Positions 34,321-64,000 of a DNA stretch of 64,000 nucleotides are shown here, in pieces. Positions within the stretch are counted from its first letter, which is position 1. Every line of letters begins with the position of its first letter. The stretch lies in assembly GCF_056746865.1 (NCBI RefSeq), contig NZ_CM163382.1. One strand, written 5' to 3'. Both the position numbers and the translations under genes were made by a program. Below the pieces are notes generated by a model, which was not told the DNA's origin, did not search any database, and saw nothing but the letters and a program-made list of their open reading frames with translations.

Positions 34321-34331
34321 GTTGTTCCTGG

Positions 34332-34820: not shown

Positions 34821-35194
34821 TGTTTCGCCCCCGGATGTTTACCCAAGGTAATGTTATTTACCGTTCTGTAATTGTCGCGGGCCATCAGGCCGGTTGCCCG
34901 GCGGGCCCGGAGGATATCAATACTGTTTATTAACTGAGAACGGGTACAGGCGCTGAATCCCGGCTGGTCGGTACGTACCAGTGCGTATTTTTCAACGAGA
35001 AAGTTCACCGCATCGCACAGTGAAATGCCTGCCTCAATATGCTGCTCAATCACACGTTCATCAGCGAACGGTGTGTCATTCAGTGTGAGGCCGTAATGCT
35101 GGTCCAACAGTCGGGTGAGCAGTGTCTGCCAGATGGTGACGGGAGACGGGCAGCGCGATGCCTCCCGTACGTGTGTGTCAGGTAATGTTTTCAT
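34817..35194 (-). CDS. cbtA: CbtA-family toxin (cytoskeleton-binding toxin, YeeV/YkfI/YpjF family)
   Basis: Translation from MKTLP… is near-identical over most of its length to recalled YeeV; start set at ATG 35194 with GAGG RBS rather than the longer upstream ORF start. Confidence 0.85.
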   Translation of the reverse strand: MKTLPDTHVREASRCPSPVTIWQTLLTRLLDQHYGLTLNDTPFADERVIEQHIEAGISLCDAVNFLVEKYALVRTDQPGFSACTRSQLINSIDILRARRATGLMARDNYRTVNNITLGKHPGAKQ

Positions 35195-35240
35195 CTTAAG
35201 TTCTCTGTAACTGGTAGTGCTAAAGGTGAGATATTCGGGG

Positions 35241-35615
35241 TTATGAGGTGGTTGCGGGTGCCAGTGTCGGATAAACAGCCATATAAACGTAACCACAGCT
35301 GCCGAGGGTGTCGGCTTCGCAGGTCAGCCCTCTGGCATACAGCGTGACGGTATGCTGATGGCGGGGATTCAGTTCACCGCTGGTGAGCATGAGTTCCAGT
35401 TGTTTCATCAGCAGCGGAAAGGCCTGGTCCAGATGATACGCATCCGCGTCGCTAAACTGCCCCCTGATACCGGCGCGGTCGGCAAGGTAATGCAACTGAT
35501 TGCCCTCCTGCACCAGACGTGCCCCGAAACAGGGCGTCACGGTGCAGGGGAGCCCCCACCAGGGGCGGTCGTTGTTGTTGTCGGGATGCGTTGTCCCGGG
35601 GTGTGTGTCTGACAC
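35241..35615 (-). CDS. cbeA: CbeA-family antitoxin (YeeU/YafW/YfjZ family)
   Basis: 124-aa ORF MSDTHPGTTHPDNNNDRPWWGLPCTVTPCFGARLVQEG… matching recalled YeeU. Confidence 0.85.
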   Translation of the reverse strand: MSDTHPGTTHPDNNNDRPWWGLPCTVTPCFGARLVQEGNQLHYLADRAGIRGQFSDADAYHLDQAFPLLMKQLELMLTSGELNPRHQHTVTLYARGLTCEADTLGSCGYVYMAVYPTLAPATTS

Positions 35616-35694
35616 GATAAAATCCTCACAGAAAATCGGTTAAGAATGCTCCGATGGTGGCGATAATTCGGCTCATCAGAATGCCCTTTCTGAT

Positions 35695-35916
35695 TCAGTT
35701 CAGGGTAACGCTCATCAGACGGACATACGGACCAAAACTGTCCTTACGGCGTTCAGCAAACACGGCCAGCACACCGGGAATATCCTGCACTTCACGGCCG
35801 GTATACGTATCCGTGCTACCGTGCCAGCGGTATTTACCGGTACAGAACGGAAAAAGACGGGATGCAGGATGCTGTTGGTGAATACGCATGGCTTCACCAC
35901 GGGTGATGATTTTCAT
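35695..35916 (-). CDS. DUF987 (YeeT-like) family protein
   Basis: 73-aa ORF in conserved position between radC-like and cbeA. Confidence 0.75.
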   Translation of the reverse strand: MKIITRGEAMRIHQQHPASRLFPFCTGKYRWHGSTDTYTGREVQDIPGVLAVFAERRKDSFGPYVRLMSVTLN

Positions 35917-35978
35917 AATGGGATACCTCTGAAGACAGAAGATAAAAGTGAAAACAGGTGTGATGTGGTTGTGACGGG

Positions 35979-36455
35979 TTAAAGCAGACCGTGTTCGGCA
36001 AAGGAGAATACCTGGTTGCCACCGACTATCAGATGGTCCGGCACCCGGATATCCACCAGGGCCAGCGCCTGTACCAGACGTTCAGTGATAAGCCGGTCTG
36101 CCTTACTGGGGGTGACTTCACCGGACGGGTGATTGTGCGCCAGCACCACGGCAGCGGCATTGTGGTACAGGGCACGTTTAATCACCTCCCGGGGATGGAC
36201 TTCTGTGCGGTTGATGGTGCCTGTGAAGAGGGTTTCACCCGCAATCAGCTGATTCTGGTTGTTCAGATACAGCACCCGGAACTCTTCCCGCTCCAGTCCT
36301 GCCATGTTCAGAATCAGCCATTCCCGTGCCGCATGCGTGGAGGTGAAGGCCACGCCGGGCTCATGAAGATGACGGTCCAGGGTTTTCAGGGCCCGCTGAA
36401 TGAGGCTGCGCTCGCCGGGCGTCATCGCTCCGGGCAGAAAGGAAAGCTGTTGCAT
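35979..36455 (-). CDS. RadC-like JAB-domain protein (YeeS/YfjY/YkfG family)
   Basis: Contains JAMM motif region HNHPSGEVTPSKAD; start trimmed to MQQLSFLPG…. Confidence 0.85.
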   Translation of the reverse strand: MQQLSFLPGAMTPGERSLIQRALKTLDRHLHEPGVAFTSTHAAREWLILNMAGLEREEFRVLYLNNQNQLIAGETLFTGTINRTEVHPREVIKRALYHNAAAVVLAHNHPSGEVTPSKADRLITERLVQALALVDIRVPDHLIVGGNQVFSFAEHGLL

Positions 36456-36470
36456 TATGCTTCTCTCCAT

Positions 36471-36950
36471 TCAGTCGATGATGCGCATAATGGCGCTGCA
36501 TTCCGGATGCTGCAGGGCGTAATCCCGCAACCGATAATAATGGACCGTCATGGCATAATTCTCCGTACGACAGGCGTGATGACTGTACGTCATCAGACAG
36601 GCGGCAATGCCGGCGGCTTCCGGGCTCATTTCAGCGCGGTTACCGTTCATGACGTTAAACAGCACCCATGTTTCGTCATCATCGTCATCCGGTTCGGGTG
36701 CCATAAATGCGCCACCGTTGTTCAGGGTGTACAGATTCCAGATACCACCGCAGTAGTCTTCACACAGACGGTCCATCCAGCCGAAGACACGGGGCTCCAG
36801 GGTCACCCACTGTGGAATGAGGCCAAAATGCTGCGGCCAAAAGCTGATGCGCTGTTCATCAGGGACGAGGCTGGCAACCAACTGAGGCGGATTATTCTCT
36901 GGTGTTGTAGCTGAATAAATTGTGGGGGTATTCTGAGAAACGCTTTTCAT
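36471..36950 (-). CDS. Antirestriction protein (KlcA/ArdB-like, YfjX/YafX family)
   Basis: 159-aa ORF with acidic stretch DDDDDE typical of this family; conserved position. Confidence 0.8.
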   Translation of the reverse strand: MKSVSQNTPTIYSATTPENNPPQLVASLVPDEQRISFWPQHFGLIPQWVTLEPRVFGWMDRLCEDYCGGIWNLYTLNNGGAFMAPEPDDDDDETWVLFNVMNGNRAEMSPEAAGIAACLMTYSHHACRTENYAMTVHYYRLRDYALQHPECSAIMRIID

Positions 36951-37031
36951 GAGATAACTCCTTAAATAACAAATAAAAGTGTGTTTTTCAGGAACGAAAG
37001 CTGAATGATTCCCTCACTCAGGGAAACGGCA

Positions 37032-37850
37032 TCAGCGCAGGCTCTCCAGCATCGTTTCTGCCATCACCCACAATGCGCGGTTGAGTTTAATATCGGTGTC
37101 GATGCTGTGAATGGCCCGGGTATGGATACGTTTTCCTTTTGCACTGCGACCGGAAATCCCGCCTTTCAGCATATTCTCCTGGATGGTCTGATATGCGCTC
37201 CACAGGTCCTTACCGTAATCCTCCCGGCGTCGCGGCGTCAGAATGTCGGCGGTGGTGACGGGCTGATGTTCGTCACCATAACGGTAAGTCAGTGCCGCCT
37301 GTGCCAGCGCCTGGCGTGCCGGTGGCGGCAGGACCAGCGACTGCATGGCATCACGCTTCTCCTCTATCCGGTCAAACACGCCCACCACTTCGTAAGCCCC
37401 TTCAATGACTCTGTCCACCACATTTCCCCGGTGCGGAACACGCACTTCCCCCAGAGACTGGCCACAGACGCACCCGTTCTGGCAGACGAACCTGAAGTAA
37501 CCCGGCAGCATCTGGTAGCTGGAGGTACCGTCATGAGAGTTGAGCAGAATAATTTCAGGGACATGTTCTCCGTTTATCTCTCCGGCCCGCCGCAGACGCA
37601 GCATGTGTTTGGTATATTCCCGGCGGCTCTGGTCGCGCACACGGGTCTGGCAGGCGAAGAACGGCTGAAAGCCTTCCCGCTGCAGATTTTCCAGGACGGT
37701 AATGGTGGGAATGTACGCATACCGTTCACTGCGGGAGGTGTGCCGGTCTTCTCCAAAAATACTCGGGACGTGGTACATCAGTTCTTCGCGTGTCAGTGGG
37801 CGCTCCCGACGGATCTGATTTACATGACCAAAACGACTGGCTAATTGCAT
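37032..37850 (-). CDS. DUF932 (YfjQ/YafZ-like) family protein
   Basis: 272-aa ORF in CP4-like module. Confidence 0.75.
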   Translation of the reverse strand: MQLASRFGHVNQIRRERPLTREELMYHVPSIFGEDRHTSRSERYAYIPTITVLENLQREGFQPFFACQTRVRDQSRREYTKHMLRLRRAGEINGEHVPEIILLNSHDGTSSYQMLPGYFRFVCQNGCVCGQSLGEVRVPHRGNVVDRVIEGAYEVVGVFDRIEEKRDAMQSLVLPPPARQALAQAALTYRYGDEHQPVTTADILTPRRREDYGKDLWSAYQTIQENMLKGGISGRSAKGKRIHTRAIHSIDTDIKLNRALWVMAETMLESLR

Positions 37851-37939
37851 ACTTTGCTCCTTATGAATGAATTAGCGGTATAAACGAAAAAGCCGCGTCT
37901 CCCGGAGAAGACGCGGCCTGATGGATGAAATGAAGACGT

Positions 37940-38173
37940 TTATTGCCTGAGAATTCCCTCACTGGCGAGATACGAATTTAGCTGTTTTCCGGCATCAGGT
38001 TCAAAATTCCAGCACCGCCAGCGTAGCTGCCCTTCGGCATTGCGGATAACCAGCCGGAAATGCGTTCCCTGGTCATCTTCAATAAGCACATTGCGGTAAG
38101 CTGTTGTGACGGCAACCGCCTGTTCGCGTGAGAAAGGGCCTTCGGGCAATAAAACAGGGTGGCAGTCCGACAT
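37940..38173 (-). CDS. DUF905 (YkfF/YpjJ-like) small protein
   Basis: 77-aa ORF; family assignment by recall and context. Confidence 0.6.
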
Positions 38174-38178
38174 ACCGA

Positions 38179-38856
38179 CTATTTTCCGATAAATTCAACG
38201 CTGGCGCTGGTGGCATTACCGTCAGCACCAACCGTGACGGTCACTTTGTCGTACGCACGGTCTTCAGGATTGAATACTTCAAACTCAACCTTATTGCCTT
38301 TTACTTCGTAAGAGCCAAAATCAGCGGTTTCTGTTGTTTCCTCGTCATATTCCCGGGCGTATGCCTGCCGGGCAGCCTGCAGGACGGAATCTTTATTAAT
38401 AGTGGTCGTCTGTTTCGGGGAAAAACCGGCAAGTGATGTGACAAATTTCGGACAGACCTTCAGCATATCACCGCGGGTGAATTCCATTCGTACACCAAAT
38501 GCCTGTAAAACGGACACATCACGCTCTGCTATGGAGTGAACGGCTTTTTTGACCATTTCCGGCGCCTGTCCGATTTCCACCTCAACAGCCCTGAATCCCG
38601 TCTGCTGATTACACATTTGTGATGTGGGGATCAGGTTACCGTTAATACTGATACGGCTGCCCAGGAGCGTCTGTACACCATTCGGGCATCCCTGCATCAG
38701 GCCAGTAATACCAATCGTGCCATTTTTCAGCATTACCAGCGCCTGACCATCTTCCGTCATGGTCTGACACCAGCCGTTTTTGACAGCCCAGTTGCCGGCG
38801 GAGGCGGAGAATGATGCCACAGTGAACAGCAGGGGAAAAAGAGCTCTGGTATTCAT
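38179..38856 (-). CDS. Predicted exported protein of unknown function (signal peptide)
   Basis: ORF 38179..38961 trimmed to [23 protein letters not shown]… (Sec signal peptide, AxA cleavage site, GAGG RBS); no family recognised. Confidence 0.6.
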
Positions 38857-39003
38857 GACTGACCTCTGAAATGAACGTACGGTGTTATTGATAATGATGG
38901 AAGGTATGCAGTGACTGTTCAGGGAATGACGTAGCCGTATATTTAGTTTTCTGTTCAACATATTGTCTCCATACCTGTCGGGACGGCTTTGGCAGGCCGG
39001 CGA

Positions 39004-39684
39004 TCACAGGTTAAAGGTGTTGATAAGTTTATGGATGAAAGAGAAATGTGGCAGGGCGGAGATAAAACGCTCTTCAGCGACCAGACTGTGGATGTGGCCT
39101 CTCCGTTCAAACCGTTCTGATGTCAGGCTGACTGATTTGATATCTGCCAGAGGAAAGACCTGCAGTTTTCCCTTCTGTAACGCGATCAGATACCAGCTAC
39201 CGCTGTAATAAATGAGCCGGCAGGGCTCCAGTGACGGATACCATCGCTCAGTCATCAGAGAGATGTGGATACACTGTCTTATTGCCAGGATGAGTTGCGA
39301 GAAACACTCGGGGAACGTTGCAGTGATATCCGGCGCCGGTAGCCAGATAAGGCAGGGAGAGGGCTCCTGGTTGTCGGTAAGACAGGTTATCAGTCGTCCG
39401 TTCCGGAGCGGAAGTATCCGTGCGATCCCGGTATTCTGTATAAAAGAAAGCATTTCAGGGATCGCACCTGGGCTGCTCTGTCGTCTGAGACTGTACCGGC
39501 CATTTCTGTACTCTAAGTCCAGGTGAACCAGACGCTGATGAAAATCGCGCTGTAAAGTACGTTCTGTAACGCCAAATTCATCTGACAGTGTTTTTAGTGA
39601 CAGAGATTCTCCGGCCATCAGTCGGCTGATAATGAGTGATAAGCGAACCGCCAGGCGATCATGCCGGGAACGATTATCAGACAT
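39004..39684 (-). CDS. WYL-domain transcriptional regulator (YfjR-like)
   Basis: 226-aa ORF with N-terminal HTH (…LSDEFGVTERTLQRDF…) and C-terminal WYL-type domain (…YSGSWYLIA…). Confidence 0.7.
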   Translation of the reverse strand: MSDNRSRHDRLAVRLSLIISRLMAGESLSLKTLSDEFGVTERTLQRDFHQRLVHLDLEYRNGRYSLRRQSSPGAIPEMLSFIQNTGIARILPLRNGRLITCLTDNQEPSPCLIWLPAPDITATFPECFSQLILAIRQCIHISLMTERWYPSLEPCRLIYYSGSWYLIALQKGKLQVFPLADIKSVSLTSERFERRGHIHSLVAEERFISALPHFSFIHKLINTFNL

Positions 39685-39886
39685 AGATGTGCACTCCGTA
39701 AGAAAACATCTTTTATTTCATGATGTTATTATGCATCATGATGTTGAAAGGATGTGTCGCATCCGGATAATCAGGAATAAAATGCAGCAGAAAAAATATT
39801 CTTTTAATTATCTGATTTTTAAGCATGATTTCATAAAAAGAAGAATGCTTGTTAATCCAGCGACACATCCTGTCGGCGTGAGTGTG

Positions 39887-40771
39887 TCAGAACAGACGAT
39901 CCCACAGTGTGACCAGCAAGTGGATAATGCGGTCCCGGGCCTTACGCAGAAGCTGTAACATCCAGGCCGGAAAGCTGAATTGGGCAACGGCAGCGTCAAA
40001 GCTTTTCCCGATGGCGTCACCAAAAGTTTGTTGTGCGTGTTTCCGGGCCTGTTCAGAGCGGTTTTCCCCCCGGATATGTGAATAAACTGCGCTGGTTGCC
40101 TGTGGTGGCAGTGCGTGGATCATCAGCGACACCAGTGCCGGAAGATTCCAGCCGACAGGTGCGGCAACGGAGAGTACCGGAAATGATGACGGGAACAGGG
40201 TTGCCACCCGGGCTGTTACTGTCGCCAGTGAGAGTTCCTGCTGACGGGACGGGCATTTTTCTGTGTCGTTCCATTCTTCAGCAGGAAACACGCGATCGGC
40301 ATGGCTGAGAACAAACAGAAAACGCGAGGGATCTGCACCTTCATTCAGTAAAAACTGATGCATGGCAATATCAGCAGCATACGCACGTTCATCAGCCCGC
40401 AGGATCCAGATAATCAGATCCAGTTCCGGCAGTAACTGACGGTAAAGCTCCCGGTATTCCTGATCATGCTGCGGTGTCTCACCAATGCCGGGCATATCGA
40501 CCAGCGTCATTCTGCGTTCACCGAGCTGCAGGGTAAGACGATGAGCCTGGCGGGTGCAGCCGTTCAGGGGATGCGTGGCGCAGATACGGGACTGAAAAAT
40601 GGCATTACACAGACTGCTTTTGCCGGTGCCGGATTTACCCATAATGCCAATTACGGGCTCGTAATGAATAACACCGTGGAGATGTTCAAGGATTTTCTGG
40701 CGAATTTCTTCAGGAAGAAACGTCAGATATGATTTTACTTGTGCAGAGAGGGAAGAATGGCTGAATGACAT
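39887..40771 (-). CDS. P-loop GTPase, YfjP/YeeP/YkfA family
   Basis: 294-aa ORF with G1 motif GIMGKSGTGKSS and G3 motif DMPGIGE. Confidence 0.8.
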   Translation of the reverse strand: MSFSHSSLSAQVKSYLTFLPEEIRQKILEHLHGVIHYEPVIGIMGKSGTGKSSLCNAIFQSRICATHPLNGCTRQAHRLTLQLGERRMTLVDMPGIGETPQHDQEYRELYRQLLPELDLIIWILRADERAYAADIAMHQFLLNEGADPSRFLFVLSHADRVFPAEEWNDTEKCPSRQQELSLATVTARVATLFPSSFPVLSVAAPVGWNLPALVSLMIHALPPQATSAVYSHIRGENRSEQARKHAQQTFGDAIGKSFDAAVAQFSFPAWMLQLLRKARDRIIHLLVTLWDRLF

Positions 40772-50871: not shown

Positions 50872-50909
50872 CAGGTCAGGATTTAGATATCTGTCCCGGG
50901 GGGAGTCCC

Positions 50910-52248
50910 CATAAGCGCTAACTTAAGGGTTGTGGTATTACGCCTGATATGATTTAACGTGCCGATGAATTACTCTCACGATAACTGGTCAGCAATTCTG
51001 GCCCATATTGGTAAGCCCGAAGAACTGGATACTTCGGCACGTAATGCCGGGGCTCTAACCCGCCGCCGCGAAATTCGTGATGCTGCAACTCTGCTACGTC
51101 TGGGGCTGGCTTACGGCCCCGGGGGGATGTCATTACGTGAAGTCACTGCATGGGCTCAGCTCCATGACGTTGCAACATTATCTGACGTGGCTCTCCTGAA
51201 GCGGCTGCGGAATGCCGCCGACTGGTTTGGCATACTTGCCGCACAAACACTTGCTGTACGCGCCGCAGTTACGGGTTGTACAAGCGGAAAGAGATTGCGT
51301 CTTGTCGATGGAACAGCAATCAGTGCGCCCGGGGGCGGCAGCGCTGAATGGCGACTACATATGGGATATGATCCTCATACCTGTCAGTTCACTGATTTTG
51401 AGCTAACCGACAGCAGAGACGCTGAACGGCTGGACCGATTTGCGCAAACGGCAGACGAGATACGCATTGCTGACCGGGGATTCGGTTCGCGTCCCGAATG
51501 TATCCGCTCACTTGCTTTTGGAGAAGCTGATTATATCGTCCGGGTTCACTGGCGAGGATTGCGCTGGTTAACTGCAGAAGGAATGCGCTTTGACATGATG
51601 GGTTTTCTGCGCGGGCTGGATTGCGGTAAGAACGGTGAAACCACTGTAATGATAGGCAATTCAGGTAATAAAAAAGCCGGAGCTCCTTTTCCGGCACGTC
51701 TCATTGCCGTATCACTTCCTCCCGAAAAAGCATTAATCAGTAAAACCCGACTGCTCAGCGAGAATCGTCGAAAAGGACGAGTAGTTCAGGCGGAAACGCT
51801 GGAAGCAGCGGGCCATGTGCTATTGCTAACATCATTACCGGAAGATGAATATTCAGCAGAGCAAGTGGCTGATTGTTACCGTCTGCGATGGCAAATTGAA
51901 CTGGCTTTTAAGCGGCTCAAAAGTTTGCTGCACCTGGATGCTTTGCGTGCAAAGGAACCTGAACTCGCGAAAGCGTGGATATTTGCTAATCTACTCGCCG
52001 CATTTTTAATTGACGACATAATCCAGCCATCGCTGGATTTCCCCCCCAGAAGTGCCGGATCCGAAAAGAAGAACTAACTCGTTGTGGAGAATAACAAAAA
52101 TGGTCATCTGGAGCTTACAGGTGGCCATTCGTGGGACAGTATCCCTGACAGCCTACAAAACGCAATTGAAGAACGCGAGGCATCGTCTTAACGAGGCACC
52201 GAGGCGTCGCATTCTTCAGATGGTTCAACCCTTAAGTTAGCGCTTATG
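50910..52248 (+). mobile_element. IS186 (IS4 family), apparently intact, with ~10-bp target site duplication
   Basis: Termini CATAAGCGCTAACTTAAGGG (50910-) and inverted copy ending 52248; flanking direct repeat ggggagtccc at 50900-50909 and 52249-52258 within a GC-rich palindrome. Confidence 0.9.
50959..52077 (+). CDS. IS186 transposase
   Basis: 372-aa ORF MPMNYSHDNWSAILAHIGKPEELDTSARNAG… matching recalled IS186 transposase. Confidence 0.9.
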   Translation: MPMNYSHDNWSAILAHIGKPEELDTSARNAGALTRRREIRDAATLLRLGLAYGPGGMSLREVTAWAQLHDVATLSDVALLKRLRNAADWFGILAAQTLAVRAAVTGCTSGKRLRLVDGTAISAPGGGSAEWRLHMGYDPHTCQFTDFELTDSRDAERLDRFAQTADEIRIADRGFGSRPECIRSLAFGEADYIVRVHWRGLRWLTAEGMRFDMMGFLRGLDCGKNGETTVMIGNSGNKKAGAPFPARLIAVSLPPEKALISKTRLLSENRRKGRVVQAETLEAAGHVLLLTSLPEDEYSAEQVADCYRLRWQIELAFKRLKSLLHLDALRAKEPELAKAWIFANLLAAFLIDDIIQPSLDFPPRSAGSEKKN

Positions 52249-53053: not shown

Positions 53054-54261
53054 TTAAAGGTGCTCGCTAAGGCGGTCACCGAACTCGATAATAAAACGGC
53101 TCATTGCCAGCCGCCAGTTCTGGATTGGCATACTCCATTTTTTGACGCCGACTGTATCGCCAGATAAATCACTTTTCGCACCGAGTCGTCCGTTGGGAAC
53201 ACCTTGCGCTTCTTTATCGCCTGCCGAATGACACTGTTCAGCGATTCGATGGCATTCGTCGTGTAGATGGCCTTGCGGATATCCGGTGGGTAACCGAAGA
53301 AGGTGTTGAGATTTTCCCAGTGTGTGCGCCAGCTCTTGCTGATTTGCGGGTATTTTTCATCCCAGACGCCTGCAAACTTATCCAACGCCATCAACGCCGT
53401 TTCCTCTGTCGGGGCCTGATATACCGCTTTCAGCCCGCTGGTGACGGCTTTGTAATCCTTCCACGACACGAATTTCAGGCTGTTGCGCACCATATGGATG
53501 ATGCAGAGCTGAATATGCGTCTGCGGGTACACGCTATTTATCGCTTCCGGGAAGCCTTTCAGGCCGTCCACGAAGGCGATAAGGATATCGTTCAGGCCGC
53601 GATTTTTCAGTTCCGTCAGTACATTCAGCCAGAACTTTGCACCTTCATTTTCGGCCAGCCACATATCCAGCAGCTCTTTCTGACCGTCGGTATTGATGCC
53701 CAGCGCGAGGAACACCGCTTTGTTAATGACACTCCCGCTGTGACGAACCTTAACCACAATACAGTCAAGATAAACAATGGGATACAGTGCATCCAACGGT
53801 CGGTTTTGCCATTCAGAGACCTGTTCTTTAACCGCATCGGTCACTTTGGATATCAGCGTGGGCGAGACATCGGCGTCGTACATTTCTTTGAAGGCTGAGG
53901 TAATTTCGCGGGTAGTCATCCCTCTGGCATACAGCGCCAGGATCTGGTTGTCCATGCCGGTAATGCGGGTCTGATTTTTCTTCACCAGTTGTGGTTCGAA
54001 GGTATTTTCACGGTCACGCGGCGTGTTAAGTTCGATCTCGCCATCATCGCACAATACCGTTTTTGACGAGTAGCCATTACGGGTATTAGAGCCTGATTTA
54101 GGAGCATTTTTCTCATGACCTAGATGGTCAGTCAGTTCTGCATTGAGCGCCGTTTCGACGGTAAGCTTTGTCAACATGCGTGAAAACTGGTTGAGGTCGG
54201 CTTCGGTTTTAAGGCCTTTGGCCAGTTCAGCCGCAAGGACTTTAAGTTTCTTTTCGTCCAT
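53054..54261 (-). pseudogene. IS256-family transposase, frameshifted near C-terminus
   Basis: ORF 53101..54261 matches IS256/mutator-type transposase; conserved C-terminal tail KKWSMPIQNWRLAMSRFIIEFGDRL is in another frame after a T/A homopolymer near 53117-53127. Confidence 0.8.
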
Positions 54262-54429
54262 CGTTTGCCTGTCTCCGTTGTTGGAGTGAACATATCAAAA
54301 ACAGGCAATTACACAATTTTAATTACAGTCTCTTCAGAATGGGTAATCAGTGACCGTCCTGACGGTCACTTTAAAGAAAATGCATATTACACAGAATGGT
54401 AAACAGGCTCAACATAGAGCTTGAAGGTA

Positions 54430-55058
54430 GTTGTTGCCTTGTAATAAAATGTGTGATTCATAGACATCGTTTCAATTTTCTCAGTTCAAGTTCAGGCTTG
54501 TAATTCTGTTCCTGTATATGCTCTTCATTGGGCTGATAGTTTGCATGAACGGCATCGGAGTATGGTGTTTTCTCAGCAAGTTCAAAGTAGCGTTCCATCG
54601 GAGTTTTACCGTTGTGAGCGCTATGAGGACGTTCCCTGTTATAGTAATGCTACCATTCTGCTAGCAATCCCTTCAGGTCATCAGCAGAAAGATCTACGGT
54701 AGCGTAAAACTCAGCTTTGTCTGTCTTTTGGGAACGTCCAACCTTTATTACATCAGGCGACAACTACCTTGAAAAACGCCGTTACTCACCGATCCCCTTC
54801 ACGGTAATACGCACTATTGCCAGTGAGATTGAATGAAGTCGTTTTAACTCGCTTTGAATACGTCTTGCACCCAGATTTCGCTGAGAACGTAACTTCCAGA
54901 ATCAGAGCGACTTCGCAAGTGCTGGTTTTCGTTGATGGTGAACGCTTGGAGCGACGGCTGTAGCTTTCCAGACCAGCGATGCCCTGAGCCAGATATCTGC
55001 GCCACCATTTACACAATGTGGGCCGAGAAGTGCCACAGTGACGGCATACAAATGTCAA
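54430..55058 (-). pseudogene. IS481/IS3-superfamily transposase remnant (N-terminal HTH fragment and C-terminal integrase-core fragment)
   Basis: 54786..55058 encodes …RPTLCKWWRRYLAQGIAGLESYSRRSKRSP… (HTH); 54430..54660 encodes …YYNRERPHSAHNGKTPMERY… (DDE core tail); internal deletion and in-frame stop. Confidence 0.5.
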
Positions 55059-55101
55059 CGACGGATGAAAAGTGGCTCTTACGCAACCTGGATGGAGATT
55101 T

Positions 55102-56119
55102 TCATGCCAGTGGACTCATGACCCTCTGCCTGAGTAGTTCAAATCCGGCTCGACCATACATCTGGCCTTTCAGCATTTTTAGTCGATTTACATGACTTTC
55201 GACAACCCCCATTATTCCAGCGACTGCTGATTGCCTCACATATAGCCGCAGCATCAGCTGCCATCCTTGCAGCCACGCGCCGAAGTTACCACTTTCTCGT
55301 TGCTCTTTTAACCACTCCCTCCATGGGGCCAGAAGTCCTCGCTCTGGAGGCCGGGTTGACATTTCAGGGAATGTTCCTGAACACACCCAGAGACTGACTG
55401 TCACACGTGATAAGCCTGTAATACGGGATATTTCCCCTGAACCCACATCCCTTGTTATGTAGTGCCATAACCTCTGTCCAACGCTGATGCCGTTTTTGGC
55501 GGGTTTGCTGTTTAAGGCGTTCCGGACGACGGAGCGATGCTACAGGCACAGACAGTACTGGCTTAGGTGATTTCTTTGGTGACAACCCACTGGCAACAAG
55601 ACGTATCAGAGGCATCTGTCTGTACATCATTCGTTCAGGCGCATCGCCAATATTTTTTAGCAGGTGCCATCGATCAGCTATCTGTCTGGCCTGAGGTGCA
55701 CCTTCACGTGCTGCTGTCGCATAGACTCCGCCACGGTCACGTGAGACAACCTGTATTTCCGGATATTTTCTGAACCAGGTCGCCAGCGTACTCTGATCGC
55801 AACCGGGAAGCAGGACGAGGGGACGGTGAGTATCAAGATTGACGATTAACGTGCCGTAATGGTGGCCCCGATGCCACGCCCACTCATCAATACCGACATG
55901 AGGCGCGCCCGACTGTTTCGTCTCCGGGGTATTAATAACCCTGCGAAGAAGAGTATCAGCACTGCAACGTAGCCCCACTGCCGTTGCTGCCTGTTTCCCG
56001 GCCTCACCTCCGGCTATTAATCCCGGTTGACGTTGTAAATTTTGTAACGCCTGTGAATACTGCTGATGTGAACTGTGAAGGGAGGCTGAGACTCGGCAAA
56101 ATTTTTCGTTAACAGGCAA
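55102..56119 (-). pseudogene. ISL3-family transposase, N-terminally truncated and frameshifted
   Basis: ORFs 55364..56119 and 55102..55446 in different frames; motifs DRWHLLKNIGDA and C-terminal VNRLKMLKGQMYGRAGFELLRQRV typical of ISL3 family. Confidence 0.6.
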
Positions 56120-56545
56120 GGGTTATGGCAGCACCAGAGTAAGATGCGTCTGGGCTGAGCAGGGTAAGTGCTGTATCTGGAGGCGATGGCATCTATGAAC
56201 TGAGTAGCTGTGCTTAAGGTATTCAACACATAGTGCTGTTTTGCATTTTCCGGGGAGATGGAGGGTTATATACCGTCAGAGCTAATAACTTCTTGACCGT
56301 ATTGCCATCAGCAAAGTAACCGTAGAAATCTCTTAAGTGAGTGTATTAAGTTACCCATAACTTAAAACGGCTTCACTGGTAAGCCTCATACATTTTCTTT
56401 CACTCAAGTTGTGGAAGCCCTCTTTCGTCGAACCGTTCGTTATAAATGCAAAAGATGTATGCTGACCCTCTCAAAGCCGAAATCATACAGAGTTTATGGA
56501 AAAGTGGTGAACCAGTCGCGTCGAAAGTAGATTGAGCTCATATCA

Positions 56546-57739
56546 TTACTTGCTTTTGCAGCAGCGCCAGATAAATACAGTCACCATGCTAAATAATACA
56601 GCGGCAAATAATGCCATCACAATCAGTGCTATTGCGACACCTGTTTTCGACACCAATGGTACCAACAACGCGCAAAGCCCATAGCCAAGTGTGTGACTGC
56701 AAGCGAGCCAGCCCGCGCCTGCGCCGTCGGCCAGCTTATCATTCAGTAAAAGTTGATAAGCGGGGGTTGCCAGAGCAGCTCCAAATGACAGCACTGCACA
56801 GCCTAGGTAAAACAACCATAGCTGTTCAGCGAGCATGATAGCCAGACCACTACTCATCAACACCCCGGCACTCAGGAGCAGAGCCACTGGAGTCAGGCGC
56901 TGTGGACGGAGTACCACGAACTGCGCGATAAGCGCAGCTATTGCGGACAGCCCCAACAACCACGCTACCTGTTGGCTAATAGTGGTGGTATCAGTGGCGA
57001 ACTGGCGAGTAAGGGCTGGAGAAAGTCCAAGCTGCATCATGCTCATTGCCGCAGCCAGTAACATTGCGCAAAGCAGATAAGGCAGGAAATCCCGCTTCAG
57101 GCTGACGCTCTTGCGCTCCGGTGTGGGCTGTGGTGGTGTGCCGGGCAACCGCAGAAGCATCACCAGTGCCAGCGCTGGCGCTGCCATCAGCATCCACACT
57201 GGCGCCAGAGGGTGAATGACCAACATTGCCGCCGCGCACAGCGGCCCGAATAGCCTGCCGCAGCTCAGGCCGGAGCTGATGGTTGCCAGAGCGGCCATGC
57301 GATTCCCATCTCCCGCTCTCTGCAATGCCCAGACCTGACAGGCTGGCACCATTGCTGACACGGTCAGACCGTAGACGATCCGGGCGATGATTAATATTCC
57401 CAACCCCACCGCTTTTGTTACGGCACCGGTAGCCATCAGCACGCTTCCCAGCCCAAGCAGGGTAAAGCTTACGCCATATCCTCCCAGAGCCCACAGCACC
57501 ACAGTCTTACTGCCAGTAAGGGAAATTTGCTTTCCCCACCATGGGGAAGATGGCAGAAACAGCATTGAGCCCAGCATCAGCAGGGCAGCCCATACAGACA
57601 GACTCAGATTTGTCTGTATGACCAGAACAGGGAGTACAACCAGCAGACCGTTCTGTCCGATACCGAGAAGACCGGCACTGAACGCCAGTGGCCAGCAGGA
57701 CAGGGTTTTTTGGGGCGTATCTTCGATCTTAGATGACAT
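56546..57739 (-). CDS. shiF: MFS transporter ShiF (aerobactin-locus associated)
   Basis: 397-aa 12-TM ORF divergent from iucA, as in aerobactin islands. Confidence 0.85.
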   Translation of the reverse strand: MSSKIEDTPQKTLSCWPLAFSAGLLGIGQNGLLVVLPVLVIQTNLSLSVWAALLMLGSMLFLPSSPWWGKQISLTGSKTVVLWALGGYGVSFTLLGLGSVLMATGAVTKAVGLGILIIARIVYGLTVSAMVPACQVWALQRAGDGNRMAALATISSGLSCGRLFGPLCAAAMLVIHPLAPVWMLMAAPALALVMLLRLPGTPPQPTPERKSVSLKRDFLPYLLCAMLLAAAMSMMQLGLSPALTRQFATDTTTISQQVAWLLGLSAIAALIAQFVVLRPQRLTPVALLLSAGVLMSSGLAIMLAEQLWLFYLGCAVLSFGAALATPAYQLLLNDKLADGAGAGWLACSHTLGYGLCALLVPLVSKTGVAIALIVMALFAAVLFSMVTVFIWRCCKSK

Positions 57740-57813
57740 TGTAATGTTTCAACACCATGTATTAATTGTGTTTATTTGTAAAATTAATTTTTCTGACAAT
57801 AACATTTCTCATT

Positions 57814-57832
57814 GATAATGATAATCATTATT
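57814..57832 (+). promoter_or_regulatory. Fur box in aerobactin promoter
   Basis: gataatgataatcattatt matches Fur consensus GATAATGATAATCATTATC at 18 of 19 positions; 40 bp upstream of iucA start. Confidence 0.8.
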
Positions 57833-57874
57833 GACATAATTGTTATTATTTTACTGTGTAGGAGCTGTTTGATT

Positions 57875-59599
57875 ATGATCCTGCCCTCTGAAAAATCCGC
57901 CACAGATGTGGCTGCGCAGTGCTTCCTGAATGCCTTGATTCGTGAAACCAAAGACTGGCAACTGGCGGAATACCCGCCAGACGAATTGATTATCCCGCTG
58001 GACGAACAGAAGTCGCTCCATTTCAGAGTGGCTTATTTCTCCCCAACCCAGCATCACTGCTTTGCATTTCCTGCTCATCTGGTCACGGCATCAGGCAGTT
58101 ATCCTGTCGATTTTACCACTCTCTCCCGGCTTATTATTGACAAGCTCCGGCATCAACTTTTTCTGCCAGTTCCCCTCTGCGAAACTTTCCACCAACGCGT
58201 GCTGGAAAGCTACGCCCATACGCAACAGACAATTGATGCCCGCCATGACTGGGCCATCCTGCGTGAGAAAGCGTTGAATTTTGGCGAGGCTGAGCAGGCA
58301 CTGCTGACAGGACACGCTTTCCACCCTGCACCTAAGTCTCATGAACCGTTTAACCGCCAGGAAGCTGAACGATACCTGCCTGACATGGCACCTCACTTCC
58401 CGCTGCGGTGGTTTTCGGTGGATAAAACGCAAATCGCTGGTGAAAGTCTGCATCTTAACCTTCAACAGCGGTTGACGCGATTTGCCGCAGAAAATGCGCC
58501 CCAGTTACTCAACGAATTAAGTGACAATCAATGGCTGTTCCCGCTGCACCCGTGGCAGGGAGAATATCTTTTGCAGCAGGTGTGGTGCCAGGCACTTTTT
58601 GCTAAAGGACTTATCAGAGACTTAGGCGAGGCCGGCACGTCGTGGCTGCCGACCACCTCTTCCCGCTCCCTCTACTGTGCTACCAGCCGCGATATGATCA
58701 AGTTCTCCCTGAGCGTTCGGCTGACCAACTCCGTCCGTACTCTGTCTGTGAAAGAGGTGGAGCGAGGAATGCGCCTGGCACGTCTGGCGCAAACCGACGG
58801 CTGGCAGATGCTACAGGCCCGCTTCCCTACTTTCCGGGTAATGCAGGAGGACGGCTGGGCCGGGCTGCGCGATCTTAACGGCAACATCATGCAGGAAAGT
58901 TTGTTTTCCCTGCGTGAAAACCTGCTGCTGGAGCAGCCGCAAAGCCAGACCAACGTTCTGGTTTCCCTGACTCAGGCCGCACCGGATGGCGGTGATTCGC
59001 TGCTGGTTTCGGCGGTAAAACGCCTGAGCGATCGCCTCGGTATCACTGTGCAACAGGCCGCCCACGCATGGGTCGATGCTTACTGTCAGCAGGTGCTGAA
59101 GCCTCTGTTTACGGCTGAAGCGGATTACGGCCTGGTGCTGCTGGCGCATCAGCAAAATATTCTTGTGCAGATGCTTGGGGATCTGCCGGTCGGATTTATT
59201 TACCGTGACTGCCAGGGCAGCGCGTTTATGCCTCACGCGACAGAGTGGCTCGATACCATTGACGAGGCGCAGGCGGAAAATATTTTCACCCGTGAGCAGT
59301 TGCTGCGCTATTTCCCTTATTACCTGCTGGTTAACTCCACTTTTGCCGTAACTGCTGCGCTGGGTGCTGCCGGGCTGGACAGCGAAGCGAATCTGATGGC
59401 TCGTGTACGAACATTGCTGGCTGAAGTGCGTGACCAGGTGACTCATAAAACCTGTCTCAACTATGTTCTGGAAAGTCCGTACTGGAACGTAAAAGGTAAC
59501 TTTTTCTGTTATCTGAACGATCATAACGAGAACACCATCGTTGACCCTTCGGTGATCTATTTTGATTTCGCTAACCCGCTGCAGGCTCAGGAGGTCTGA
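57875..59599 (+). CDS. iucA: Aerobactin synthetase IucA (NIS synthetase)
   Basis: ORF 57812..59599 trimmed to MILPSEKSATDVAAQCF… with GGAG RBS; IucA/IucC family. Confidence 0.93.
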   Translation: MILPSEKSATDVAAQCFLNALIRETKDWQLAEYPPDELIIPLDEQKSLHFRVAYFSPTQHHCFAFPAHLVTASGSYPVDFTTLSRLIIDKLRHQLFLPVPLCETFHQRVLESYAHTQQTIDARHDWAILREKALNFGEAEQALLTGHAFHPAPKSHEPFNRQEAERYLPDMAPHFPLRWFSVDKTQIAGESLHLNLQQRLTRFAAENAPQLLNELSDNQWLFPLHPWQGEYLLQQVWCQALFAKGLIRDLGEAGTSWLPTTSSRSLYCATSRDMIKFSLSVRLTNSVRTLSVKEVERGMRLARLAQTDGWQMLQARFPTFRVMQEDGWAGLRDLNGNIMQESLFSLRENLLLEQPQSQTNVLVSLTQAAPDGGDSLLVSAVKRLSDRLGITVQQAAHAWVDAYCQQVLKPLFTAEADYGLVLLAHQQNILVQMLGDLPVGFIYRDCQGSAFMPHATEWLDTIDEAQAENIFTREQLLRYFPYYLLVNSTFAVTAALGAAGLDSEANLMARVRTLLAEVRDQVTHKTCLNYVLESPYWNVKGNFFCYLNDHNENTIVDPSVIYFDFANPLQAQEV

Positions 59600-60547
59600 A
59601 TGTCTGGGGCAAACATTGTTCACAGCGGATATGGACTGCGCTGTGAAAAACTCGACAAGCCTCTGAATCTTGGCTGGGGGCTGGACAATAGCGCGGTGTT
59701 GCACTGGCCCGGGGAGCTGCCAACAGGATGGCTGTGCGACGCGCTGGATCAGATATTTATCGCCGCACCACAACTTTCAGCAGTGGTTCTTCCCTGGTCC
59801 GAATGGTGTGAGGAGCCACAGGCGCTGACGCTTTTCGGACAGGTACAAAGCGACATTATCCATCGTTCCGCTTTCTGGCAGTTACCGTTATGGCTGAGTT
59901 CTCCGGCAAACCGGGCCTCCGGTGAAATGGTTTTTGATGCAGAGCGTGAGATTTATTTCCCGCAGCGCCCCCCCCGTCCGCAGGGTGAAGTTTATCGTCG
60001 TTACGATCCACGCATTCGCAGGATGCTGAGTTTCCGCATTGCCGATCCCGTTTCTGATGCAGAACGTTTCACTCGCTGGATGAACGATCCGCGCGTTGAG
60101 TATTTCTGGGAGCAAAGTGGCTCACTGGAGGTACAGATCGCCTATCTGGAACGCCAGCTCACCAGTAAACATGCATTCCCGCTGATTGGTTGTTTCGACG
60201 ATCGGCCGTTCAGTTATTTCGAAATCTACTGGGCGGCGGAAGACCGCATTGGTCGCCACTATTCGTGGCAGCCCTTTGACCGTGGCCTGCATCTGCTGGT
60301 TGGTGAACAGCAATGGCGCGGAGCCCACTATGTGCAAAGCTGGCTGCGCGGGGTGACACATTACCTGCTGCTGAATGAGCCACGTACGCAGCGCACAGTA
60401 CTGGAGCCACGCACCGATAACCAGCGCCTGTTCCGCCATCTTGAGCCTGCGGGATACCGGACAATTAAAGAGTTCGACTTCCCACATAAACGCTCGCGCA
60501 TGGTGATGGCGGATCGTCATCACTTCTTCACGGAGGTCGGTCTGTAA
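59600..60547 (+). CDS. iucB: N6-hydroxylysine acetyltransferase IucB
   Basis: 315-aa ORF in operon position 2. Confidence 0.93.
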   Translation: MSGANIVHSGYGLRCEKLDKPLNLGWGLDNSAVLHWPGELPTGWLCDALDQIFIAAPQLSAVVLPWSEWCEEPQALTLFGQVQSDIIHRSAFWQLPLWLSSPANRASGEMVFDAEREIYFPQRPPRPQGEVYRRYDPRIRRMLSFRIADPVSDAERFTRWMNDPRVEYFWEQSGSLEVQIAYLERQLTSKHAFPLIGCFDDRPFSYFEIYWAAEDRIGRHYSWQPFDRGLHLLVGEQQWRGAHYVQSWLRGVTHYLLLNEPRTQRTVLEPRTDNQRLFRHLEPAGYRTIKEFDFPHKRSRMVMADRHHFFTEVGL

Positions 60548-62289
60548 TGAATCACAAAGACTGGGATTTGGTCAACCGCCGCTTGGTGGCAAAAATGTTG
60601 TCTGAGCTGGAGTATGAGCAGGTTTTCCACGCGGAATCTCAGGGCGATGACCGCTACTGCATTAACCTGCCGGGAGCACAATGGCGCTTCATCGCTGAAC
60701 GTGGTATCTGGGGCTGGCTCTGGATTGATGCTCAAACTCTGCGCTGCGCGGACGAGCCAGTACTGGCTCAGACGCTGCTGATGCAGCTAAAGCAGGTACT
60801 GTCAATGAGCGATGCAACCGTTGCTGAGCATATGCAGGATTTGTATTCCACGCTGCTGGGCGACCTGCAACTGCTGAAAGCCCGTCGCGGGCTGAGCGCC
60901 AGTGACCTGATTAATCTTAGTGCCGACCGCCTGCAATGCCTGCTGAGCGGTCATCCTAAATTCGTTTTTAATAAAGGTCGCCGTGGCTGGGGTAAAGAGG
61001 CGCTGGAACGATATGCGCCAGAGTATGCCAACACCTTTAGACTGCACTGGCTGGCGGTAAAACGTGAACATATGATCTGGCGCTGTGATAACGAGATGGA
61101 TATTCATCAGTTGTTGACGGCCGCAATGGATCCGCAGGAGTTTGCCCGCTTCAGTCAGGTCTGGCAGGAAAACGGACTGGATCATAACTGGCTGCCGCTG
61201 CCTGTACATCCGTGGCAGTGGCAGCAAAAAATCGCCACCGACTTCATCGCTGATTTTGCCGAAGGCAGGATGGTGTCTCTCGGCGAGTTTGGCGACCAGT
61301 GGCTCGCCCAGCAGTCGCTGCGTACCCTGACCAACGCCAGTCGCCGGGGTGGGCTGGATATCAAGCTGCCGCTGACCATCTACAACACCTCATGCTACCG
61401 GGGGATTCCTGGCAGATACATCGCTGCCGGACCACTGGCTTCACGCTGGCTACAACAGGTTTTTGCGACCGACGCTACCCTGGTGCAAAGCGGTGCAGTG
61501 ATCCTTGGTGAACCGGCTGCAGGCTATGTCTCCCATGAAGGCTATGCCGCGCTTGCCCGGGCTCCCTATCGCTACCAGGAAATGCTTGGTGTTATCTGGC
61601 GGGAGAATCCGTGCCGCTGGCTGAAACCGGATGAAAGTCCGGTTCTGATGGCAACACTGATGGAGTGCGACGAAAACGATCAGCCGCTGGCAGGCGCATA
61701 TATAGACCGCTCCGGGCTGGACGCTGAAACCTGGCTTACGCAACTGTTCCGGGTGGTCGTGGTTCCTCTGTATCACCTGCTTTGCCGCTACGGTGTCGCG
61801 CTTATTGCACATGGACAAAATATAACGCTCGCCATGAAAAAGGGGGTTCCACAGCGTGTTCTGCTGAAAGACTTCCAGGGCGATATGCGGCTGGTGAAAG
61901 AAGAGTTCCCCGAAATGGACTCTTTGCCTCAGGAGGTTCGTGATGTTACATCCCGCCTGAGTGCGGACTACTTAATCCATGATTTGCAGACGGGTCACTT
62001 CGTGACAGTACTGCGTTTTATTTCGCCACTGATGGTTCGTCTTGGCGTACCTGAACGGCGATTTTATCAACTGCTGGCAGCAGTGTTGAGTGATTACATG
62101 AAAAAACATCCACAAATGTCAGAGCGTTTTGCGCTTTTCTCACTTTTCAGGCCACAAATCATTCGCGTGGTGCTGAACCCGGTAAAACTGACCTGGCCTG
62201 ATCTGGATGGCGGCAGCCGCATGCTGCCGAATTACCTTGAGGATCTGCAAAATCCGCTGTGGCTGGTAACTCAGGAATATGAATCATGA
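60547..62289 (+). CDS. iucC: Aerobactin synthetase IucC
   Basis: 580-aa NIS synthetase paralogous to IucA. Confidence 0.93.
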   Translation: MNHKDWDLVNRRLVAKMLSELEYEQVFHAESQGDDRYCINLPGAQWRFIAERGIWGWLWIDAQTLRCADEPVLAQTLLMQLKQVLSMSDATVAEHMQDLYSTLLGDLQLLKARRGLSASDLINLSADRLQCLLSGHPKFVFNKGRRGWGKEALERYAPEYANTFRLHWLAVKREHMIWRCDNEMDIHQLLTAAMDPQEFARFSQVWQENGLDHNWLPLPVHPWQWQQKIATDFIADFAEGRMVSLGEFGDQWLAQQSLRTLTNASRRGGLDIKLPLTIYNTSCYRGIPGRYIAAGPLASRWLQQVFATDATLVQSGAVILGEPAAGYVSHEGYAALARAPYRYQEMLGVIWRENPCRWLKPDESPVLMATLMECDENDQPLAGAYIDRSGLDAETWLTQLFRVVVVPLYHLLCRYGVALIAHGQNITLAMKKGVPQRVLLKDFQGDMRLVKEEFPEMDSLPQEVRDVTSRLSADYLIHDLQTGHFVTVLRFISPLMVRLGVPERRFYQLLAAVLSDYMKKHPQMSERFALFSLFRPQIIRVVLNPVKLTWPDLDGGSRMLPNYLEDLQNPLWLVTQEYES

Positions 62290-63563
62290 AAAAAAGTGTC
62301 GATTTTATTGGTGTAGGGACAGGGCCATTTAATCTCAGCATTGCTGCGTTGTCACATCAGATCGAAGAACTGGACTGTCTCTTCTTTGATGAACATCCTC
62401 ATTTTTCCTGGCATCCGGGTATGCTGGTACCGGATTGTCATATGCAGACCGTCTTTCTGAAAGATCTGGTCAGTGCTGTTGCACCTACAAATCCCTACAG
62501 CTTTGTTAACTATCTGGTGAAGCACAAAAAGTTCTATCGCTTCCTTACAAGCAGACTACGTACAGTATCCCGTGAAGAGTTTTCTGACTACCTCCGCTGG
62601 GCTGCTGAAGATATGAATAACCTGTATTTCAGTCATACCGTTGAAAACATTGATTTCGATAAAAAACGTCGATTGTTTCTGGTGCAAACCAGCCGGGGAG
62701 AATATTTTGCCCACAATATCTGCCTTGGTACAGGAAAACAACCTTATTTACCACCCTGTGTGAAGCATATGACACAATCCTGTTTCCATGCCAGTGAAAT
62801 GAATCTTCGTCGGCCGGACCTTAGTGAAAAACGGGTAACCGTGGTTGGTGGAGGACAGAGTGGTGCAGACCTGTTCCTTAATGCATTACGCGGGGAATGG
62901 GGAGAAGCGGCGGAAATAAACTGGATCTCCCGGCGGAATAATTTTAACGCACTGGATGAGGCTGCTTTTGCTGATGAGTATTTTACACCTGAATATATTT
63001 CAGGCTTCTCCGGACTGGAGGAAGATATTCGCCATCAGTTACTGGATGAGCAGAAAATGACATCGGATGGCATCACTGCCGATTCTTTACTGACCATTTA
63101 TCGTGAGTTGTACCACCGTTTTGAAGTTCTGAGAAAACCAAGAAATATCCGTCTGCTACCCAGCCGCTCGGTAACAACTCTGGAAAGTAGTGGTCCTGGC
63201 TGGAAGTTGCTGATGGAGCATCATCTGGATCAGGGCAGGGAGAGCCTGGAAAGTGATGTGGTGATTTTCGCCACAGGTTACCGTTCTGCGTTGCCACAAA
63301 TACTTCCCTCACTGATGCCGCTGATCACCATGCACGATAAGAACACCTTTAAAGTGCGTGATGACTTCACTCTGGAATGGAGTGGCCCGAAAGAGAACAA
63401 CATCTTCGTGGTCAACGCCAGTATGCAAACCCATGGCATCGCCGAACCTCAGCTCAGCCTGATGGCATGGAGATCTGCACGTATTCTTAATCGTGTAATG
63501 GGACGTGATTTATTCGATCTCAGTATGCCGCCCGCCCTGATTCAGTGGCGCAGCGGCACCTAG
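62286..63563 (+). CDS. iucD: L-lysine N6-monooxygenase IucD (FAD/NADPH)
   Basis: 425-aa ORF with N-terminal GxGxxN dinucleotide motif (IGVGTGPFNLS). Confidence 0.93.
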   Translation: MKKSVDFIGVGTGPFNLSIAALSHQIEELDCLFFDEHPHFSWHPGMLVPDCHMQTVFLKDLVSAVAPTNPYSFVNYLVKHKKFYRFLTSRLRTVSREEFSDYLRWAAEDMNNLYFSHTVENIDFDKKRRLFLVQTSRGEYFAHNICLGTGKQPYLPPCVKHMTQSCFHASEMNLRRPDLSEKRVTVVGGGQSGADLFLNALRGEWGEAAEINWISRRNNFNALDEAAFADEYFTPEYISGFSGLEEDIRHQLLDEQKMTSDGITADSLLTIYRELYHRFEVLRKPRNIRLLPSRSVTTLESSGPGWKLLMEHHLDQGRESLESDVVIFATGYRSALPQILPSLMPLITMHDKNTFKVRDDFTLEWSGPKENNIFVVNASMQTHGIAEPQLSLMAWRSARILNRVMGRDLFDLSMPPALIQWRSGT

Positions 63564-63644
63564 GGAAAACGCAGCCGGAGGCTGCTTCTTTAACTCGCTA
63601 CACAGCATCTTTGGGCTGATTTTTTCCGCCCGTGTGGAGGAATA

Positions 63645-64000
63645 ATGATGATAAGCAAAAAGTATACGCTTTGGGCTCTCAACCCACTGCTTCTTACCAT
63701 GATGGCGCCAGCAGTCGCTCAACAAACCGATGATGAAACGTTCGTGGTGTCTGCCAACCGCAGCAATCGCACCGTAGCGGAGATGGCACAAACCACCTGG
63801 GTTATCGAAAACGCCGAACTGGAACAGCAGATTCAGGGCGGCAAAGAGCTTAAGGACGCACTGGCTCAGCTGATCCCTGGCCTTGACGTCAGCAGCCGGA
63901 GCCGCACCAACTACGGTATGAATGTGCGTGGCCGCCCGCTGGTCGTGCTGGTTGACGGCGTGCGTCTCAACTCTTCACGTACCGACAGCCGACAACTGGA
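63645..64000 (+). CDS. iutA: Ferric aerobactin TonB-dependent receptor IutA (5' part only; continues past window end)
   Basis: MMISKKYTLWALNPLLLTMMAPAVAQQTDDETFVVSANRS… signal peptide plus TonB-box region; open to window end. Confidence 0.85.
   Translation, partial: MMISKKYTLWALNPLLLTMMAPAVAQQTDDETFVVSANRSNRTVAEMAQTTWVIENAELEQQIQGGKELKDALAQLIPGLDVSSRSRTNYGMNVRGRPLVVLVDGVRLNSSRTDSRQL

Follow-up and report, generated by a model that had tools for sequence, protein, structure and literature searches.

The 64,000-nucleotide stretch of contig NZ_CM163382.1 (NCBI RefSeq assembly GCF_056746865.1) that we analyzed, hereafter the window, carries genes for the siderophore aerobactin at its right-hand end. 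Very probably, these genes make up the standard aerobactin locus of E. coli (shiF, iucABCD and iutA) in intact form, as a discrete 9.3-kb block within a large composite island of the type found in strain SMS-3-5, inserted at the tRNA-Phe gene pheU and encoding a pathway that would operate as known for aerobactin. An initial annotation, made from the sequence without database searches, had proposed a Fur-regulated aerobactin module on a pheU island related to the SHI-2 and SHI-3 islands of Shigella, in an E. coli background with intact cadBA. Our comparisons bore out the gene identities, the Fur box, the host, the pheU site and the state of the cad genes; the proposed kinship with the SHI islands was weakly supported.

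Results

The aerobactin locus and its promoter region

Gene identities were taken from Pfam and from annotated genomes of identical sequence, and an NCBIfam scan of the Iuc proteins, in a collection that holds no IucA-D hidden Markov models, returned only distant siderophore and acetyltransferase matches. On the minus strand, shiF (56546-57739; 397 amino acids (aa); MFS_1) encodes a predicted major facilitator superfamily (MFS) transporter. It is divergent from four tightly packed plus-strand open reading frames (ORFs), iucA (57875-59599; 574 aa; IucA_IucC and FhuF), iucB (59600-60547; 315 aa; Acetyltransf_8), iucC (60547-62289; 580 aa; IucA_IucC and FhuF) and iucD (62286-63563; a 425-aa allele; Lys_Orn_oxgnase). 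The predicted products are two aerobactin synthetases (IucA and IucC), an N6-hydroxylysine acetyltransferase of the GNAT family (IucB) and an L-lysine N6-monooxygenase (IucD), in the gene order of an aerobactin locus. The plus-strand gene iutA, for the ferric-aerobactin outer-membrane receptor, begins at 63645 and is truncated by the window end at 64000; the 118 of its 733 codons that are present (16%) include the TonB box and the Plug domain recognized by Pfam. The implied presence of iutA in the window is thus correct as regards its start, but only for this fraction of the gene.

Translation revealed no internal stops in shiF, iucA, iucB, iucC or iucD. Positions 54000-64000 are 100% identical to many annotated E. 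coli chromosomes, in which the genes are called MFS transporter (shiF), iucA-iucD and iutA, and in strain XDL, whose sequence is 100% identical to the window part, iutA is full length (733 aa). The Iuc proteins are 98.8-99.8% identical to those of plasmid pS88 (IucA, 99.8%), the exact ShiF protein occurs on at least 1000 contigs, and the index of the sequence collection lists the exact IucB protein in 27,962 blocks; iuc was found in 1849 of 5426 complete E. coli genomes. ShiF has been described as an auxiliary factor that raises aerobactin secretion (PMC6918656). By these comparisons the window carries the standard E. coli locus of shiF, iucABCD and iutA in intact form, the integrity of iutA being assumed from identical genomes.

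The 135-bp spacer between shiF and iucA houses a predicted Fur box, GATAATGATAATCATTATT (57814-57832), which departs from the 19-bp consensus at a single position (18/19); with up to 3 mismatches allowed, the number of matches expected in the shuffled window is 0.00. The near-consensus Fur box beside a divergent shiF, as initially annotated, was therefore recovered. The box overlaps the -35 hexamer and spacer of the best iucA promoter-like site of the region, TTGATA-17 nt-CATAAT on the plus strand (57812-57840; 10/12 matches, with TG ahead of the -10 hexamer). Plasmid pCERC14 and almost all related chromosomal loci have this intergenic sequence unchanged. Only position 57822, in the Fur box, varies: the window has T, and PK8261 and one further locus (L019) have G, which lowers the match to 17/19. 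Published work indicates that shiF and the aerobactin operon share one Fur box/promoter region, and that iron depletion strongly raises shiF transcription (PMC6918656). From the sequence and this literature, we infer Fur control in the source strain.

A 142-aa ORF on the plus strand (57387-57815) lies antisense to the 5' part of shiF and ends within the Fur box. It bears no sign of being a gene; an overlapping 'shiG' has been proposed for SHI-2 (PMC7545054).

Insertion at pheU in an E. coli backbone

The cadC-proximal edge of the island is marked by a direct-repeat/attachment-site remnant at 32248-32266 (minus strand), which corresponds to the last 19 nt of tRNA-Phe (pheU). This match is exact and single in the window, with 0 expected by chance, and neither ARAGORN nor Rfam detected a complete tRNA gene in the whole window. 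The pheU assignment rests on this 19-nt remnant and on comparison with other genomes. The island-free strain 2017C-4173W12 has the same backbone, and its complete pheU begins exactly at window-equivalent position 32248, followed by dicD(yjdC), dsbD and cutA; the window shares the first 19 nt of this pheU and then diverges. In EC332, the same island ends in a tyrosine integrase and an intact tRNA-Phe gene adjoining dicD(yjdC)-dsbD-cutA. The EC332 sequence past iutA comprises sitDCBA, sodC, many insertion sequence (IS) remnants, iha and a type I restriction system ahead of the integrase and tRNA-Phe, and the island measures approximately 116 kb from the cadC-side repeat to tRNA-Phe. These comparisons place the island at the 3' end of pheU, with a partial tRNA repeat left behind. 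The pheU location given in the initial annotation is thus supported as to the site, although pheU itself is represented in the window only by 19 nt.

Many E. coli chromosomes match the backbone at 8000-32247 with 100% identity, which identifies the host as E. coli by sequence. Next to the insertion site, on the minus strand, lie cadA (26166-28313; inducible lysine decarboxylase, 715 aa), cadB (28393-29727; lysine/cadaverine antiporter, 444 aa) and cadC (30093-31631; membrane-bound activator of cadBA, 512 aa), all of them intact and full length. The CadA, CadB, CadC, LysU and DtpC proteins are identical to annotated, non-pseudogene coding sequences of 2017C-4173W12, and the whole of CadA (residues 1-715) can be aligned with the solved structure of E. 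coli lysine decarboxylase (PDB 3N75). The initial annotation had set this intact locus against the usual situation in Shigella; for E. coli it is ordinary to have cad intact next to a pheU island, and this offers no notable contrast.

The match in the empty-site strain covers 24,249 bases of its record for 24,248 in our query (8000-32247); a single 1-nt indel therefore lies upstream of cadA, in 8000-26165, and leaves the five checked backbone proteins unaffected. A fragment of a P4-type integrase at 31897-32050, between cadC and the pheU remnant, is on the backbone side, within sequence that the island-free strain shares at 100% identity; it is therefore an older remnant, outside the present island. 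The sole Rfam match in the window is the enterobacterial small RNA STnc630 (1731-1896, plus strand; 181 bits), just downstream of a proP-like ORF.

Composition of the island

The in-window part of the island (32267-64000) amounts to at least 31.7 kb, is colinear with the islands of PK8261, EC332 and SMS-3-5, and continues beyond the window. Its order from the pheU remnant is RelE/ParD, a CP4-57-like prophage-remnant module, a YadA-like adhesin, an IS, a sigma-like helix-turn-helix gene, IS256/ISL3 remnants and the aerobactin block, and its GC content drops to 0.39-0.49 at 40-50 kb. The island is large and composite. Leftward from shiF, one meets in turn an ISL3-family transposase pseudogene (55102-56286, minus strand; coordinates converted from the annotation of 100% identical XDL by the Prokaryotic Genome Annotation Pipeline, PGAP), which is just outside the left end of the block, an integrase-core fragment, an IS256 pseudogene, the sigma-like gene, the IS and the YadA-like gene. 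We considered whether the two ISL3 remnants flanking the block are copies of each other, as in a composite transposon, and rejected this, since blastn showed no similarity between them (E 1e-5).

Several further features of the island were observed. A RelE/ParE toxin and ParD antitoxin pair (32514-33100, minus strand) lies just inside the island edge by the pheU remnant, followed by the CP4-57-like module at 33172-40771 (CbtA/YeeU, antirestriction, DUF932 and GTPase genes). The IS between the YadA-like and sigma-like genes, at approximately 50886-52248 (~1.36 kb, with a 372-aa ORF at 50959-52077), is extra: it is missing in XDL and SMS-3-5, PK8261 has an IS5 at that place, and, among the loci seen, CP172217.1 also has an insert at this position, with a 370-aa DDE_Tnp_1 transposase. 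Upstream of the aerobactin block the relatives differ widely. XDL has dptFGH, a system of phosphorothioation-dependent restriction, in place of the CP4-like module (L001 1-7798), and the island region of PK8261 (L004 1-6705) carries floR, tet(A), sul2 and aph genes and a second, inverted CP4-like module. The PK8261 island was followed for more than 130 kb, through this second module and resistance region, without reaching pheU.

Relationship to SHI-3

An alternative interpretation is that the island is a SHI-3 homologue, that is, a direct relative of the pheU aerobactin island of Shigella boydii, with shared flanks, residing in an E. coli that has retained cad. SHI-3 (Purdy & Payne 2001) has been summarised as a 21-kb island at pheU in S. 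boydii, with an iuc/iut operon and 'LEE prophage' genes (PMC7545054, PMC1550401), and it thus has in common with the window the tRNA site and the six-gene module. SHI-3 is reported to measure 21 kb, in a Shigella chromosome (PMC7545054); the island described here takes up at least 31.7 kb of the window and has a length of about 116 kb in EC332. In addition, the same island is found at pheV in SMS-3-5, and the site is therefore interchangeable; the closest modules are those of E. coli islands and ColV plasmids; and the shiF of S. flexneri, the sole Shigella-labelled sequence compared, is only 91.4% identical to that of the window and belongs to another lineage. On these points, with SHI-3 itself taken from published summaries, we regard a SHI-3 homologue as unlikely.

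Likewise, the divergent shiF cannot serve as a signature of SHI-2/SHI-3 islands, as the initial annotation had taken it to be, since this arrangement was seen in every E. coli iuc locus examined, plasmids included. The six-gene shiF-iucABCD-iutA set is the standard E. coli iuc locus, carried by several islands and by IncF plasmids (PMC7686366), and is therefore not diagnostic of a SHI type. The label 'SHI-3-like' is weakly supported and adds little. Site and cargo agree with SHI-3, whereas size and host do not. A related notion, that the pheU island is an unreduced relative of S. boydii SHI-3, seems improbable to us. If it were true, SHI-3 would be a 21-kb remnant left by IS-mediated deletions that also took the neighbouring cad genes, and the window would display the ancestral arrangement that preceded this pathoadaptive loss.

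The aerobactin block and its lineage

Homology to ColV/IncF plasmids starts at position 56538, 8 nt past the shiF stop codon, and defines the left end of a conserved block of which 7,463 bp (56538-64000) are in the window. By extending the window with the identical XDL sequence, we located the right end at window-equivalent position 65880, for a full length of 9,343 bp. Both ends are shared by chromosomal islands and plasmids, being the same in pS88, pCERC14 and CFT073-type islands, and S. flexneri-labelled homology likewise stops at 56538. Alignment with ColV-type loci, a check suggested in the initial annotation, recovered this 9.3-kb block with unchanged ends.

The in-window block is 99.67% identical to SMS-3-5, 99.1% to pCERC14 and 93.6-93.7% to the CFT073-type lineage; over the full block, the values are 98.7-98.9% for pS88/pCERC14 and 92.8% for the CFT073-type lineage. 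For ShiF, identity is 99.7% with the allele of SMS-3-5, 94.5% with that of the plasmids and 89.9% with the CFT073-type one, and the N-terminus of IutA is 82.8% identical to its CFT073-type counterpart. Look-ups of the exact ShiF, IucB and 445-aa IucD proteins, in output without organism names, gave no context recognisable as Shigella. The Shigella DNA compared consisted of draft contigs with the S. flexneri ShiF that end at IS elements and give shiF only; this shiF is 100% identical to that of a CFT073-type locus (L027), and the window module is not of the S. flexneri lineage. Assignment of the module to a SHI type was thus not specifically supported, its nearest relatives being SMS-3-5 and, at 98.7-99.1%, the ColV/IncF plasmids.

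The high identity to pS88/pCERC14 and the identical block ends are also what one would expect if the block had recently been captured from a ColV/IncF virulence plasmid and integrated in the chromosome, rather than being a long-standing part of the island, and chromosomal copies with plasmid-type flanks (sitABCD-crcB-shiF) do occur elsewhere. However, ShiF sides with the chromosomal SMS-3-5 allele and not with that of the plasmids, the flanks are ISL3/IS256 remnants and not the IS1 and crcB of the plasmids, and the same flanks accompany this ShiF allele in every chromosome in which it was seen. Recent plasmid capture thus appears quite improbable.

The iucD allele

In every RefSeq record checked (XDL, PK8261, EC332, SMS-3-5, CCUG 73778, an avian pathogenic E. 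coli plasmid and pS88), PGAP flags iucD as 'frameshifted'. The flagged call spans 1334 nt, corresponding to 62286-63619 of the window, and is judged against a 445-aa reference. The iucD ORF of the window ends after 425 aa, with the C-terminus ...ALIQWRSGT, while the 445-aa allele, which belongs to a lineage of ~93% identity, runs 20 residues longer; a stop codon and a 1-nt indel, both at the extreme end of the gene, separate the two. The conserved monooxygenase domain is fully inside the 425 residues (Pfam, residues 4-333; TIGR04439, positions 1-422 of 431).

The shorter allele is also the more widespread. A 451-nt query from the 3' end of iucD to the start of iutA matched 1917 records, 1465 of them at least 99% identical to the window, and the fetched records of this class all bear the same flagged 1334-nt call; the exact 425-aa protein occurs on at least 1000 contigs and belongs to the most common sequence class. 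The same 425-aa ORF is present in pCERC14, and pS88 has the same IucD C-terminus and the same flag. Strain S88 secretes aerobactin in a pS88-dependent manner (PMC6918656). Because the plasmid needed for aerobactin production by S88 shares both flag and C-terminus, the 'frameshifted' flag is most likely a reference-length artefact, and this label on a common allele should not be taken as loss of function.

That the cluster has decayed through a frameshifted iucD pseudogene is thus extremely unlikely, and we rejected such a dead operon: the PGAP marks and the lack of aerobactin in E. coli ED1a (PMC6918656), another strain with aerobactin genes on a pheU island, speak for it, but the ORF has no internal stop and a whole domain, differs from the longer allele only in stopping 20 residues sooner, is shared by the class of 1465 records and by pS88, and the ED1a defect was put down to a 10-kb insert in shiF, which is intact here.

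Within the 81-nt iucD-iutA spacer we observed a short hairpin, GCAGCC-GGA-GGCTGC followed by TTCTTTAA (63571-63593), that might act as a weak attenuator or stabilise the mRNA. In the lineage with the 445-aa iucD, these bases are part of the coding sequence.

Discussion

The evidence points to an intact standard aerobactin locus on a pheU island of SMS-3-5 type, and the established knowledge of aerobactin systems, from which we take the pathway steps, suggests how it would work. When iron is plentiful, Fe2+-Fur would shut off transcription by occupying the 19-bp box, which overlaps the -35 hexamer and spacer of the iucA promoter, the same box serving the divergent shiF; when iron is scarce, the operon would be derepressed. 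IucD would then hydroxylate lysine and IucB would acetylate the product, after which IucA and IucC would join two such units to citrate to yield aerobactin. ShiF would raise the secreted amount, and IutA would import ferric aerobactin. The island itself would have arrived by site-specific integration into pheU, leaving the 19-nt tRNA remnant beside an undisturbed cadC-cadBA.

Some points weigh against this interpretation. The gene for the receptor is incomplete in the window, and its wholeness in the source strain is assumed from identical genomes; the end of the island with pheU and the integrase is beyond the window, and is known from EC332 and not from the source strain; the best-matching genome covers 94% of 31000-55000; PGAP calls the 425-aa iucD allele a frameshifted pseudogene; and both siderophore production and Fur control are deduced from sequence identity to characterised loci.

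Aerobactin is a recognised virulence/fitness factor of extraintestinal E. coli, and its presence helps to describe the strain. Published work already covers the module with its Fur control, shiF, the carriage of the module on pheU/pheV islands and the plasmid relatives, and identical sequence is present in many public genomes. The locus thus adds no new biology; a pheU aerobactin island in E. coli, that of ED1a, has already been tabulated (PMC7545054).

Comparison with known systems

The islands of Shigella and of CFT073 type are the more distant relatives. SHI-3, known here by published summaries, resembles the window in combining an aerobactin module with prophage-like genes in a pheU-linked island, but its published size is several times smaller, and the window differs further in its E. 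coli host and intact cad locus. SHI-2 of S. flexneri is inserted at selC and carries shiA-E (PMC7545054), between the integrase and shiF. By contrast, the site here is pheU, the left side of shiF is occupied by ISL3/IS256 remnants and the sigma-like and YadA-like genes, and shiA-E do not figure in the annotations of near-identical islands. SHI-2/CFT073-type islands do have the six genes in the same order, with the same block ends and shiF divergent from iucA; they differ in lineage, with 92.8-93.7% nucleotide identity to the window, and the CFT073-type islands encode a 445-aa IucD and a 731-aa IutA and often carry sat and iha.

The commensal E. coli ED1a carries PAI-ED1a-pheU, a 44-kb island with Iha and aerobactin (PMC7545054). 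By its published description it resembles the window in having an aerobactin island at pheU in E. coli, and it differs in that its shiF is broken by a 10-kb insert, the cause assigned for its lack of aerobactin (PMC6918656), while shiF is intact in the window.

The classical ColV-type aerobactin system is that of pColV-K30. Among plasmids of the ColV/IncF group, pS88 and pCERC14 share with the window the 9.3-kb block, its ends, the Fur box, the promoter and the 425-aa IucD end. They differ in location, the region being on a plasmid with IS1 and crcB/sit, and not ISL3 remnants, at its flanks, and in their distinct ShiF allele.

The closest counterpart is the island of SMS-3-5, in which the genes follow one another as in the window (RelE/ParD, CP4-like module, YadA-like gene, sigma-like gene, IS256/ISL3 remnants, shiF-iucABCD-iutA), and which is 98.7% identical over 85% of 31000-55000 and 99.67% identical over the module. 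It differs in adjoining the kps capsule locus (pheV site) and not pheU, and in being without the extra IS of the window. Relatives of this type continue with ISL3, IS1 and sitDCBA. Biggel et al. distinguished three conserved iuc architectures among E. coli, including one on 'PAI IAI39-pheV-like' islands (shiF/iuc/iutA2), and pheU and pheV islands use one integrase type (PMC7686366). The locus in the window is most aptly viewed as the aerobactin block common in E. coli, carried on a tRNA-Phe island of the SMS-3-5/IAI39 type.

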